A stretch of DNA of 64,000 bases from Patescibacteria group bacterium. Lineage in GTDB: Bacteria; Patescibacteriota; Patescibacteriia; JAHJFT01. Position 1 is the first letter of the stretch. Each line of letters begins with the position of its first letter. A program made the translations under genes and the position numbers. The stretch lies in NCBI GenBank assembly GCA_028710985.1, contig JAQTTB010000002.1, positions 86,750-150,749 on the forward strand, written 5' to 3'. Positions 48,032-52,233 of the stretch are shown here, piece after piece. Below the pieces are notes generated by a model. It was given only the letters and a program-made list of their open reading frames with translations, had not been told where the DNA came from and did not search any database.

Positions 48032-48124
48032 ATTATGATAATTGTACAGTAAATCTTTGCATATGTAAATCGTAATTGAACATAAATAAAAAATGACCCG
48101 CCGTCGGGTCATTTTAAATAAAAA

Positions 48125-48526
48125 TTAATAGGAAAGCAGGGGTATGAGCACTCCGTAGATAATGCCAAAAATCAAATTCAAACTAATTTTTTCAATTACC
48201 ATTCCTCTCTTGCGCGTCAGAACCGCGAGAAATGTAAAAAGCAGAACAAACGCGCCGGCCACGGCCATAAAATGAGTTTTAGCGTCCGCGCCGTACTGCG
48301 AAATCATATATCTAAAAACCAGCGCCGCGCCGAGTGCGAAAACAATATTCGCGCCTACCGCAAATATTACGCCCCAGATGCGCACGCGCTCCGACGTCGC
48401 GGCCTGCATACCTGCCACCTGGCCCCGGAAAAAATCCGATATCCGGACCGACCGAATCAAAACCAGCGCCACGCACAGAAGCGTGGCCACAAGAAACGCG
48501 ATCGCTGATGCGAAAAATGGATTCAT
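48125..48526 (-). CDS. hypothetical membrane protein (~4 TM)
   Basis: hydrophobic ORF followed by terminator hairpin at ~48088-48117. Confidence 0.6.
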   Translation of the reverse strand: MNPFFASAIAFLVATLLCVALVLIRSVRISDFFRGQVAGMQAATSERVRIWGVIFAVGANIVFALGAALVFRYMISQYGADAKTHFMAVAGAFVLLFTFLAVLTRKRGMVIEKISLNLIFGIIYGVLIPLLSY

Positions 48527-48585
48527 AGCACGAATAATATATCAAATAATCGCATATTTGGCAACCGATCAGGAACGTCCGCACA

Positions 48586-48614
48586 TTGACAAAAATTCGC
48601 AAATATGCTACCGT
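48586..48614 (+). promoter_or_regulatory. sigma70 promoter of candidate ncRNA
   Basis: TTGACA-17-TACCGT with extended -10 TG. Confidence 0.7.
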
Positions 48615-48959
48615 TGTCAATGACAGGGCGCTCCTCGTCGTGTCGCTCCGGTGGGGCACGGGAATGCTTCGCTTCCGCCCTTCACCAATCCCCCGAGGGC
48701 TCGGGCGGATGAAGTGAAACGGAACATTAATGTCTTCTTTCGCCTTCCCCTAACTAGCTCACCGTTTGAACGGTCGAGCAAAGCACAGGGATAGTGTTCG
48801 ACGAACCTACCCTAAAGAGGTGCGGGCGTCCGGACATGAAAAGCGAGAGCTGACGTTCAAGCGTTCCCGTGTTCCCACCGTGTTAAAATGATCTCTCCCT
48901 GGTCTCCCCAGAGACTGGAAAAACAGTGAATGACGATACCGGCTTGGGAGTGCCCGTAC

Positions 48960-49104
48960 TCGCGCATGTGGCTTGCAGCCCAGTCGCGATCTCTCAGTCT
49001 CCTACTGAGTGCGCGGGCGCTTAGTGTATCGGCTTAACCATCAGGCTTTCTTCGCGCATGTGGCTTGCAGCCCAGTCGCGATCTCTCAGTCCTACTGAGT
49101 GCGC
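48960..49104 (+). repeat. direct repeat, 55 nt and 53 nt
   Basis: 48960-49014 and 49052-49104 identical except for a 2-nt loop indel. Confidence 0.95.
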
Positions 49105-49150
49105 CTGATCCGATACGCCTAACTCATATCACTTCGTCTTTCGCTCTTAT

Positions 49151-49175
49151 GACCACCCCTTGGTGGTCCTTTTTT
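49151..49175 (+). terminator. intrinsic terminator
   Basis: gaccacc-cctt-ggtggtc + T6. Confidence 0.8.
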
Positions 49176-49228
49176 ATATTAAAATATCAAAAATAAAACC
49201 GGCCTTTGAGCAAGGACCGGCGAGAAAT

Positions 49229-49339
49229 CTATCGCGACCGCCATTCAATGAGCTTAAAGACGACCAGGTGCGCCAAAGGAGCTGAAAGGACTACGATCAC
49301 CACCTGCTGCCATTCGGAAATCTGAAGATACGCCTCCAT
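49229..49339 (-). CDS. 36-aa hydrophobic peptide (not in ORF track)
   Basis: SD AAGGAGGT + ATG; MEAYLQISEWQQVVIVVLSAPLAHLVVFKLIEWRSR*. Confidence 0.55.
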   Translation of the reverse strand: MEAYLQISEWQQVVIVVLSAPLAHLVVFKLIEWRSR

Positions 49340-49390
49340 GCTACCTCCTTGCGTTACTTGCTGCAATGATAAGGCCGGTGAGAAAAAGCG

Positions 49391-49603
49391 CTATGTAGGT
49401 ATCTCGTCCGGCGGCTGGTATTTGAAGGCCGTACCTGCCTTTTCGCATCTCGCGGCCTCCTCCCAAATCGCGTCGAAGTTCATGGGAATATCCCTTAATT
49501 TCTCAGTTGTACCGACCGGACTCCCATCGTATTCGACGACGAGTCCATTCTCCTCGGCGAACTTCGCCAAATCAAGGTTGTTTCGTTTTATCTTATCTCC
49601 CAC
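49391..49603 (-). CDS. small hypothetical protein
   Basis: SD AAGGAG before GTG start. Confidence 0.5.
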   Translation of the reverse strand: MGDKIKRNNLDLAKFAEENGLVVEYDGSPVGTTEKLRDIPMNFDAIWEEAARCEKAGTAFKYQPPDEIPT

Positions 49604-49774
49604 GTGGCATCTCCTTTTCTTGATTAAAAGACCTAAATTAATATTATCATAATGTATAAAAAAATAAAACCGGCCCCAAGATGAGACCGGCAGTCAACAT
49701 TAAATAATTAATATCAACTCTATTTGACTCCCTGCCATATCGGAATGTATAATTTTCACAAAGGAGGATGCGCA

Positions 49775-50113
49775 ATGACAGAAGAACTTTTAACAATCGC
49801 CGCTATTTATGTTTCCTTAATCTCGCTACTGCTGATGGCATGCAAAATATACCCTGGGAGAAAGCGGAAGAATTTTTATCGGCAGTTGTTTCAACCGCTT
49901 CATGCCGAATCGAGCGACCGTCAGCCGGAACCGGTTGATTACGAGGCAATTCGCCGAGAAAGGCTTGAAGCCGGCTGGCAAGAAATCGAACCTGGATATT
50001 TCATATATCCTCATATAATTGCGTTCTGTAATGATGGCACAACGATGGAGCTAGCTCTCAACCAATTACCACCAATTCGGAAATTATCCGAACGGGAGGA
50101 AAACTATGCCTAA
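49775..50113 (+). CDS. small hypothetical protein with N-terminal TM
   Basis: TTGACT..TATAAT promoter at 49724-49753, SD AGGAGG. Confidence 0.55.
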   Translation: MTEELLTIAAIYVSLISLLLMACKIYPGRKRKNFYRQLFQPLHAESSDRQPEPVDYEAIRRERLEAGWQEIEPGYFIYPHIIAFCNDGTTMELALNQLPPIRKLSEREENYA

Positions 50114-50339
50114 CCGCAAACCGCTGTCCAGGGAGGAAGCTGATAACATGACTCAACGGGGCCGCTTTTCCTGCGATCCCTACGACTCACAGCCAACCCT
50201 GGAACAGCTGGCAAAGGCAAGGGCAACCGTCTCCCTGGCGCTTCAAGGCAAACTAACGCCGGGCAAGGGCTTCATCGGCAGTCCGATCGAAGAGACAGGG
50301 CTAGCACATCTACGAAAAATGCATCGCACTTCCCGCTGA
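50106..50339 (+). CDS. small hypothetical protein
   Basis: SD GGGAGG, overlaps upstream stop, followed by terminator hairpin at ~50344-50376. Confidence 0.55.
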   Translation: MPNRKPLSREEADNMTQRGRFSCDPYDSQPTLEQLAKARATVSLALQGKLTPGKGFIGSPIEETGLAHLRKMHRTSR

Positions 50340-50435
50340 CCGCGGCCCATCTCGCTTGAGGTGGGCCCATTTTTATTTTACTCGCATTAAACAAAAAACG
50401 GGCATTACGCCCGTTTTTAAGATTGGCAATTTGAA

Positions 50436-50768
50436 TTAAAACTTGAACACATCGGCAAACTTGCCAACGATTGGCAATGGCTCTTGTTTCCCATTGACGG
50501 CATTAATAATACCGAGGATCAATAAAACCAAGGTGCCTAAGCTCAGAATCCAACTAACGGTAAACCAGAAATAAAACGGGATTATCCAGCCAATCACATT
50601 GATTAAAACTACAAGCAGAAACAATACCAAACCCTGTTTAACATGATACTTCACGAACGGATCTTTGCGAGCATCGCCGGTTAGGAGTGGAACAAAAAAT
50701 AAAATATACGCGATGGCAGCCATTGTAGTATTTTTATTTCCGCCACTCATTGGGGCATCCTGCGCCAT
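50436..50768 (-). CDS. DUF4870-like membrane protein
   Basis: AYILFFVPL...FVKYHVKQGL...GIINAVNG...LPIVG. Confidence 0.8.
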   Translation of the reverse strand: MAQDAPMSGGNKNTTMAAIAYILFFVPLLTGDARKDPFVKYHVKQGLVLFLLVVLINVIGWIIPFYFWFTVSWILSLGTLVLLILGIINAVNGKQEPLPIVGKFADVFKF

Positions 50769-50792
50769 ATAGATGAAATTAAAAAATTAAAA

Positions 50793-51479
50793 CTATTGAG
50801 CAATCTTCGTGATATTGACACTCACATCCTGCCCATCAACCTCAAAGCCAACGGAATATGAATAAGTCTCCATATCGCCAGCCATTATCATGGCAGTTTT
50901 GTCATCAATACTGCTTTGAATAATCTCCAGACCCTTGTCTTTAATTACCTCATTGAGCGCACTCAAATCAGCCCCAGTCGCCAAGCGTGAGATTTTAAAT
51001 TCCATTATGGAAAAAACTGCGCCTTCGGAATCATACACGCTCGAAGAAACGGCAGTTAATTTAACATCCCCAAAAACTTTCTCCAAATCTTTTTTGGCTT
51101 CTTCAGCCGCAGATCGTGAATTATCATCGTAAATCTCGGCTTCCTCTGCCTCGTTATACCTGTCTTTCGGCGTTTTGGCTGCCTCTCGGGCCTCTTCGGC
51201 CGCTTGCTCCGCTTCACTCTCAGCCTCTTCTTTGGCAATTTCCTGCGCTATTTGTTCGGATAAATCGCCTCCGCCAGTAATTTTGCCCAGCAATCCGCCC
51301 ATGCCCGTATTCACCCCATATATCTCTTGTAGGATTTGATTTGCCATCCTCTGTTGGCGCCAGCGATTATAACCGTAATATAAACCGCCCGCTACCACCA
51401 GCACCGCCAATACAATAATAATAACTGTAATTGTTTTTTTATTGCTCGTAGTTGTTTTTGTAGTGGTTTTAGTATCCAT
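50793..51479 (-). CDS. hypothetical membrane-anchored protein
   Basis: N-terminal TM, acidic helical region. Confidence 0.65.
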   Translation of the reverse strand: MDTKTTTKTTTSNKKTITVIIIVLAVLVVAGGLYYGYNRWRQQRMANQILQEIYGVNTGMGGLLGKITGGGDLSEQIAQEIAKEEAESEAEQAAEEAREAAKTPKDRYNEAEEAEIYDDNSRSAAEEAKKDLEKVFGDVKLTAVSSSVYDSEGAVFSIMEFKISRLATGADLSALNEVIKDKGLEIIQSSIDDKTAMIMAGDMETYSYSVGFEVDGQDVSVNITKIAQ

Positions 51480-51545
51480 AGATTTAATATTTAGTAAAAT
51501 AATAAAATTCTTTTCTCCGACCTTTATTATTCCTTCGCCGAAAAT

Positions 51546-52052
51546 TTAATATAAGTTAATCCTATCAATTAAACCATTGATAATAATTTTTAAAAGGCTT
51601 TGAAAAAAAACGGGATTCATGATGTAAACCGCGGTTAAGGATCCGATACAGATGACTACCGATAGCCACTTGGTATAAACACCGGCCGTGCGAAAAAACA
51701 AAACCACTGATAAAATCGCGGTTAAAATCGGACCAAAGATTTTAATATCACCCAGGGGCAAATAATATCCACCAATATACTTACTCTCTTCACCGAAAAA
51801 ATTAGCCAAATCAAAATTTACCCTAAAAATTATTAAAATTGCCTCCAGGACTAAAATAATCAACAGGGCAATTGCAGAATATCTGGTAGTTGCGCCCTCT
51901 TGCGTACGATAAATTTCATAAATGACAACCGGCATGAGACCGATTATGATCCACAAAGGATTGAAGTAAAAGAAAGCCATAATTGCCATCACGACGGTAA
52001 CTATGGTTAGGATCGTGCAATATAGGGGAGCATTTTTTGTAGGTTTGGCCAT
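51546..52052 (-). CDS. hypothetical membrane protein
   Basis: multi-TM ORF. Confidence 0.65.
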   Translation of the reverse strand: MAKPTKNAPLYCTILTIVTVVMAIMAFFYFNPLWIIIGLMPVVIYEIYRTQEGATTRYSAIALLIILVLEAILIIFRVNFDLANFFGEESKYIGGYYLPLGDIKIFGPILTAILSVVLFFRTAGVYTKWLSVVICIGSLTAVYIMNPVFFQSLLKIIINGLIDRINLY

Positions 52053-52158
52053 AAAATTATTATTAGTATTATAACATTTTACGCAAACCGATGCAAAATA
52101 CTAAAAGCGGCCTCTCTGGCCGCCTATTTATAAACTAAAAAATGAATTTCATATTTCT

Positions 52159-52233
52159 TGGTAGCCTCAAGGGGAATCGAACCCCTGTTCCATCCTTGAG
52201 AGGGATGTGTCCTAACCGTTAGACGATGAGGCC
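52159..52233 (-). tRNA. tRNA-Glu (CTC)
   Basis: GGCCTCA/TGAGGCT acceptor, loop CTCTCAA, GGTTCGATTCC, CCA. Confidence 0.95.

Follow-up and report, generated by a model that had tools for sequence, protein, structure and literature searches.

A candidate large noncoding RNA gene with a twin-module domain, so far found in one Patescibacteria genome

Within the window, the whole 64,000-nucleotide stretch of DNA analysed here (C8:86750-150749 of a 1.03-Mb Patescibacteria genome that is 98% complete), positions 48620-49175 probably constitute a real, lineage-restricted gene for a large noncoding RNA (ncRNA). Since a promoter, a terminator and a fold were found together with an absence of gene calls, and the identity of two internal modules stops at their closing stems, a stand-alone, trans-acting RNA gene is supported. 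The initial annotation had proposed a trans-acting large ncRNA outside Rfam, possibly a ribozyme; promoter, terminator and fold uphold the stand-alone structured gene, while nothing points to the ribozyme option, no hallmark having turned up among the motifs tried. Apart from rRNA, RNase P RNA and tmRNA, few large RNAs are retained in genomes of ~1 Mb; an extra 550-nt gene would therefore be costly and points to uncatalogued RNA biology. What is new is one candidate, so far the only example, of a large orphan bacterial RNA in which a module is unusually present twice.

Transcript limits and predicted fold

The features of the region are as follows (P, predicted probability).

48125-48526, minus strand: divergent neighbour encoding an orphan membrane protein of 133 aa; it has a separate promoter at 48564-48536
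48586-48614, plus strand: sigma-70-type promoter, TTGACA-17-TACCGT with TG extension, read from the sequence
48620-49175, plus strand: inferred transcript of ~550 nt without a credible reading frame, its start taken from the -10 box
48621-48645, plus strand: 5' leader hairpin with CUCCU loop (helices P 0.84-0.95; loop unpaired P 0.99)
48649-48880, plus strand: domain 1, with a 21-bp closing stem, a long hairpin arm (48673-48724) and a branched arm (48729-48857)
48881-48898, plus strand: single-stranded linker (6-mers unpaired, P ~0.9)
48899-48918, plus strand: 8-bp inter-domain hairpin (P 0.86)
48925-49145, plus strand: domain 2, with an 11-bp closing stem and two arms (P 0.95-0.98; z -4.9 forward, -3.7 reverse)
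48948-49022, plus strand: arm 1, a 10-bp stem closing module copy 1 (48960-49014)
49024-49118, plus strand: arm 2, module copy 2 (49052-49104) closed by stems of 9 and 7 bp
49151-49175, plus strand: intrinsic terminator, 7-bp stem (hairpin 49151-49168, P 1.0) and U-run
49229-49339, minus strand: convergent neighbour, 36-aa hydrophobic frame, clear of the RNA with no overlap
49391-49603, minus strand: convergent neighbour, 70-aa orphan, clear of the RNA with no overlap
52159-52233, minus strand: tRNA-Glu, at the far edge of a variable block (48113-52158) that contains the RNA

The annotated promoter is present, with TTGACA starting at 48586, though it is weaker than claimed. A strict extended-promoter pattern gave 63 sites in the genome, 60 of them intergenic, compared with 4-6 sites when the bases were shuffled (five shuffles); both the RNase P promoter and the 48586 site were among the 63, and the latter fits the genome's own consensus. 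A matrix built from regions upstream of tRNA, tmRNA and RNase P genes scored it at just 7.7 bits, with 2956 sites equal or better, and it was absent from a generic promoter scan because its -10 box matches at three of six positions. At the other end, the terminator hairpin and U-run were found as annotated. The intervening body, described earlier as GC-rich and free of open reading frames, has 56% GC compared with 36-39% in the flanking gaps, and a hexamer-trained gene caller left the gap empty, as it did those of RNase P RNA and tmRNA. Furthermore, the absence of a downstream same-strand gene to regulate was borne out, the next called one lying ~4 kb away, and a leader role is therefore unlikely.

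On the plus strand, the 556-nt unit folded at -232.8 kcal/mol (z -7.34), and none of 100 shuffles was as good; the minus strand gave z -4.23. Pairs at P>0.8 numbered 161, with 11 G-U, on the plus strand versus 131, with 6 G-U, on the minus strand. The strand preference read from G-U pairs was modest, less than had been claimed (unit z -7.3 vs -4.2; domain 1 -7.4 vs -6.7). Folding of the region with DNA parameters gave z values of -7.0 and -4.2.

In domain 1, the 21-bp stem proposed previously (48649-48669 with 48859-48880; one bulge, two G-U pairs) was recovered, with 19 of its 21 pairs at P>=0.96, and the nested hairpins at 48673-48724 and 48757-48779 were both part of the predicted fold, as was the hairpin at 48899-48918. 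Folded alone, domain 1 had z -7.4 forward, below all 151 GC-matched genome windows (lowest -4.9, from 12 shuffles per window vs 30 for domain 1), and -6.7 in reverse. It thus folds almost equally well on the minus strand, unlike the genome's reverse transcriptase (RT)-associated RNAs and RNase P RNA, the 5' part of which gave -5.8 forward and -1.4 reverse, and this counts against an old RNA. For domain 2, placed earlier at about 48925-49133, the start was retained and the end shifted to 49145, the closing stem being AGUGAA-U-GACGA/UCGUC-U-UUCGCU. The suggested pairing of the 5' and 3' ends (agggcg/cgctct) did not survive; its probability was ~1e-4, because both partners are occupied in other helices.

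The twin module and its possible role

Both annotated arm stems of domain 2 (gagtgcccg/cgggcgctt and gtgtatcgg/ccgatacgc) were predicted, and each arm carries the same module, as had been claimed for a ~54-nt unit; the copies measure 55 and 53 nt and are identical save for a 2-nt indel in one hairpin loop. Each was predicted to form two hairpins on its closing stem in a three-way junction. In copy 1 these are hairpin A, with internal loops, and hairpin B, with a CUCCU loop, while the hairpin B loop of copy 2 is CCU; an inner 7-bp stem (AUCAGGC/GCCUGAU), overlooked in the earlier description, closes the second copy. Outside the modules the similarity was lost: 30-nt flanks compared in register were identical at only 6/30 and 7/30 positions. 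Nevertheless, the flanks of each copy pair with each other over 10 and 7 bp, which 8 and 14 of 5000 shuffles equalled, and flanks crossed between the copies gave only 4-5 bp. As the flanks are unrelated and yet self-pairing, the sequence identity extends just as far as the closing stem and no further outwards.

The two copies were also examined in four read runs. In two of them, the 40-nt shared stretch came out as one contig of double depth, along with a 112-nt bridging contig; both runs may be the source of the assembly, and this is therefore consistency with two copies and not independent support. A third run covered 48248-48660 and 48677-49035 without differences, and the run with a 0.07 share covered the flanks only.

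The comparison of one arm with the other is the sole comparative signal, and the identity of the modules would fit either strong selection after an old duplication or recent copying into an existing arm. We tentatively propose, as a model with somewhat less than even chances, that the RNA acts in trans as a two-site scaffold for a dimeric or repeated partner, either a protein or a further copy of the RNA itself. The RNA would be transcribed from its own promoter, starting at about 48620, and domain 2 would display the one binding surface twice, in neighbouring copies, so that the twin modules could bind either a protein dimer or another molecule of RNA. Domain 1 is possibly a separate structural or processing unit, the long stem of which may be trimmed by RNase III, an enzyme encoded in the genome, and selection would act on the module. 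A point against the scaffold is that the perfect identity of the modules could reflect recent copying, as this genome copies other hairpin modules from one site to another. No CsrA, Hfq, Ro60, Nop, IS110, TnpB or Cas1 family was matched in the genome, and the search gave no candidate binding protein.

The RNA resembles OLE, ROOL, GOLLD and raiA in its length (>500 nt), multi-domain fold, stand-alone gene and function that is not known. It differs from them in obtaining no Rfam score, in its occurrence in one genome only and as a single sequence, and in its twin near-identical modules. In the available part of one report, OLE, ROOL and GOLLD are described as oligomerising via symmetric loop contacts, partly palindromic kissing loops (PMC12286853). 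Hairpin A carries the palindrome UGCA at its tip; the tip is, however, predicted to close for the most part into a UGC triloop (P 0.81), a further point against the scaffold. In a bolder reading, which we regard as speculative and improbable, the RNA would found a new class of large bacterial RNAs, in which a three-way-junction module duplicated on two arms builds a symmetric RNA or RNP particle in a CPR bacterium and might draw in the orphan retron-type RT via twin CUCAGU/ACUGAG helices. At 70 nt, the twin module is a compact, self-contained unit suited to synthesis and to a search for binding partners, and it offers a natural test of how an RNA gains valency through arm duplication.

Searches for relatives and known RNA families

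So far, the ncRNA appears to be confined to one genome, and no second copy of the unit was found elsewhere in that genome. The collection of homologues, proposed earlier as a check, produced no real match in 400 class genomes, 400 phylum genomes, 149 relatives or the pattern scans. BLAST against 100 relatives gave two chance matches, one to the AT-rich flank and one to coding-like DNA. The search of the 400 class genomes gave four matches (E 0.002-0.007, ~4 expected), all in coding-like DNA, and that of the 400 phylum genomes gave two, inside frames of 375 and 457 codons; the latter sample includes an unpublished genome (G548), on which only this negative depends. Phages and plasmids yielded chance matches only by BLAST. 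Covariance models of the module (R2) and of the inner arm of domain 1 (R3), each built on a single sequence, both matched none of the 149 relatives. A pattern scan of genomes gave 59 matches, none similar beyond the pattern's own hairpin, and the sole match in Paceibacterota looks like an opposite-strand terminator. The two matches from metagenome scans were the same 305-aa frame, which was unstructured; a 10-of-11 match just upstream of this frame was put down to chance among ~80 matches inspected. Six viral scans returned 0, 7, 9, 0, 0 and 11 matches, the inspected ones being coding or without inner similarity, and when a non-coding frame free of stops served as query, the scans yielded 42, at least 598 and at least 600 unconfirmed candidates. 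Relatives that have diverged escape exact patterns and models built on one sequence, the genomes sampled represent a portion of the phylum, and the collection scans may have excluded very close genomes.

The Rfam check suggested for novelty was run and no family was matched: with Rfam 15, including OLE, ROOL, GOLLD, raiA, riboswitches and ribozymes, no match reached the gathering score, and at E<=10 there were four chance-level matches, all far under threshold (best E 0.67). The same scan of the window matched three tRNAs. A check for motifs typical of RNase P, tRNA-like arms, SRP, group I/II introns and the hammerhead and HDV ribozymes was likewise negative, with the exception of three GTGCG pentamers, and none of the 11 loops is a GNRA-capped hairpin; together with Rfam, this agrees with the earlier statement that no hallmark of RNase P, tmRNA, SRP, group I/II introns or riboswitches is seen. 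The true RNase P RNA and tmRNA genes are located at C3:423460-423833 and C3:98718-99107, and their hallmark motifs are absent from the element. For SRP RNA and 6S RNA, models gave no match anywhere in the genome, nor at the element even at E<=10, and the element has neither a helix-8 motif nor a long rod with a central bubble; domain 1 contains no such bubble. Resemblances by eye to HDV-like and group I RNAs and to lysine, glycine and cobalamin riboswitches were set aside, since none of them obtains an Rfam score. A CsrB/RsmZ-type sponge was rejected as well, with no GGA loop among the 11 loops and no CsrA match in the genome. An integron attC site was set aside on two RYYYAAC and zero GTTRRRY motifs on the plus strand, and a CRISPR mini-array or tracrRNA on the lack of a Cas1 match in the genome. 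A 63-nt repeat at the ends of contigs C3 and C8 shows codon-wise variation and is apparently coding.

TIGR arrays and IS110 bridge RNAs are similar in having repeated units on variable palindromic stems. As far as the accessible portion of one paper goes, TIGR stem-loop arrays occur in CPR bacteria, with box C and box D (CCA and UG boxes) separated by spacers of 8-12 nt that vary in sequence (PMC12045711). Both were rejected, as the core of the element is constant, without variable spacers, and no Nop or IS110 match was found; the Nop search used Pfam models, which diverged Tas proteins may escape. In the portions of the literature available, no stand-alone structured RNA of such a kind was found for CPR bacteria, and motif lists in supplements could hold a relative.

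Genomic setting and alternative readings

The genes around the RNA are mostly small orphans. The 133-aa membrane protein has no Pfam family and one relative (88% identity), the 70-aa protein had no relative in the searches run, and atlas look-ups for two neighbour proteins gave no usable lead. The 36-codon frame at 49229-49339 has a strong AGGAGG site, a basic C-terminus and its own terminator-like hairpin, and looks like a small membrane peptide that is type I toxin-like by shape only; no pairing between it and the ncRNA was predicted. A functional link between the ncRNA and the neighbouring small genes was looked for and none was found. The neighbour proteins are as rare as the RNA, which suggests that the lineage is thinly sampled. 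In the one same-family genome offered by the searches (G001), the gene order is murF, tRNA-Glu, a gene that by reading appears to be TetR-like, and a membrane-fusion gene. The 4-kb block with the RNA and the small genes is missing from the corresponding site, and the block is therefore variable. In that genome, part of the 3' end of the tRNA-Glu gene is repeated just after the gene, resembling an integration scar (L013:5040-5210). According to the part of the report at hand, GOLLD and ROOL are often found near tRNA genes in mobile DNA (PMC12286853), a setting like that of the present RNA in its variable block by tRNA-Glu.

Such a setting also suits a recently acquired or decaying structured element without host function, i.e., a non-autonomous mobile RNA or DNA relic with an arm lately copied locally. 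We consider this unlikely, albeit worth weighing: the element occurs in one genome only, in a block beside tRNA-Glu that is missing in G001, the strand asymmetry of domain 1 is weak, the region folds well with DNA parameters too, and a bulged hairpin loosely resembling hairpin A has been copied to three other intergenic sites. However, an intact promoter and terminator sit exactly around the folded body, both of the differing closing stems pair, and the genome has neither a second copy of the unit nor a transposase of the families tried. The bulged hairpin, with a UCCCC loop, lies between orphan genes at C3:381824, 380574 and 359160 (minus strand), the third copy having compensatory changes in the lower stem, and has CGCG-(A)CAU..UG..CAGUCGCG in common with hairpin A. 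A pattern composed after viewing both hairpins found only four sites, two on C3 and two in the element, for which the chance is ~0.1 by rough count, and we take the resemblance as a hint. In 250 class genomes, the bulged hairpin had no convincing relative (three matches, E 0.006-0.01). Reading the region as a short-peptide mRNA (35 codons from the ATG at 48930) or as a DNA structure such as a single-strand origin would draw on several frames of 15-47 codons and on the same folding as DNA. This is the least probable of the readings considered, given that there is no gene call or clear ribosome-binding site, that the inter-module indel shifts the frame, that the region holds no DnaA box and no complete attC, and that promoter and terminator argue for RNA. 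Hardly more probable is that the RNA is catalytic, or that it is a 6S- or SRP-like housekeeping RNA, much diverged, which takes the place of a missing one. Neither 6S nor SRP RNA was matched elsewhere in this 98% complete genome, and the size and branching of the element are within the range of ribozymes. On the other hand, the 6S and SRP models are silent at the element, the missing central bubble, the lack of GNRA caps and the absence of any of the ribozyme or SRP motifs tried speak against it, and the genome's match to the SRP54 domain is no more than weak and partial.

Two further readings, both of which we judge to be quite unlikely, assign a partner to the RNA. With modular hairpins and exposed, C-rich, anti-Shine-Dalgarno-like loops, it resembles cuckoo RNAs and S. 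aureus RNAIII, and could be a base-pairing regulator whose loops block ribosome-binding sites. RNAIII is of similar length. Two CUCCU loops match the 16S tail of this genome and are unpaired at P 0.99-1.0, and two such loops arose in 4 of 295 shuffles, by a post hoc test. No excess of targets was found, though, with 17 of 939 start regions below -8 kcal/mol versus 19 of 939 decoys; AGGAG occurs upstream of 42 of 736 well-scoring genes, the loop in the second module is only CCU, and the genome has no Hfq match. Cuckoo RNAs are, in the available part of their description, modular hairpins with anti-Shine-Dalgarno CCUCCUCCC loops, defined as 2-4 adjacent hairpins with a CCUCCUCCC loop on each (PMC4615179). 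The element is no member, as its loop list holds no CCUCCUCCC; its loops are instead CUCCU, CCU and CCCA, only 2 of the 11 are of the matching kind, and its modules are three-way junctions. A shade less probable is an orphan template or decoy RNA used in trans by the genome's stand-alone retron-type RT, the only RT match, which lies on a different contig (C3:567838-568383). Upstream of this RT (locus C3:567571-569327; L014:2130-2990 and L014:1231-2136, minus strand) are two structured RNAs of like outline, which, as in a retron msr-msd, have a leader hairpin, a long closing stem around a branched body and their own terminator. Their conserved helix CUCAGYG/YRCUGA resembles the CUCAGU/ACUGAG hairpin of the module. 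Among eight RT loci from 401 genomes, seven had similar RNAs; YUCAGYG was present in seven and the downstream YRCUGA partner in six, and the family is defined by YUCAGYG pairing with a YRCUGA located past the closing stem at a distance of 15-70 nt. This long-range, pseudoknot-like arrangement is missing from the element; moreover, a profile of 11 RT-RNA cores found both RT-adjacent units and not the element, and neither covariance model of the element scored the RT loci. Family membership therefore fails, as does a retron, since no RT gene adjoins the element, while a role in trans with the RT may still apply.

Several other loci were observed in the same genome. Besides the bulged hairpin, a second shared module lies near C3:378430, 377540 and 359110, and an uncalled cysteine-rich frame of 30-codon repeats lies between two of the bulged hairpins (C3:380597-381705, minus strand). 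Integron-cassette-like inverted repeats (GTTRRRY start, RYYYAAC end) surround stretches of 400-600 nt at C8:13624-16285 and C3:15368-15963. Inverted repeats of 20-22 bp bracket tRNA genes at C3:101368-101472, 372458-372558, 212442-212539, 304911-305011 and 346950-347049 and would pair in the precursor. Finally, at C3:282546-282900 (plus strand), a strict-pattern promoter is followed by ~350 nt of long hairpins with a U-rich end and no gene call, making this locus a candidate for a second stand-alone RNA.
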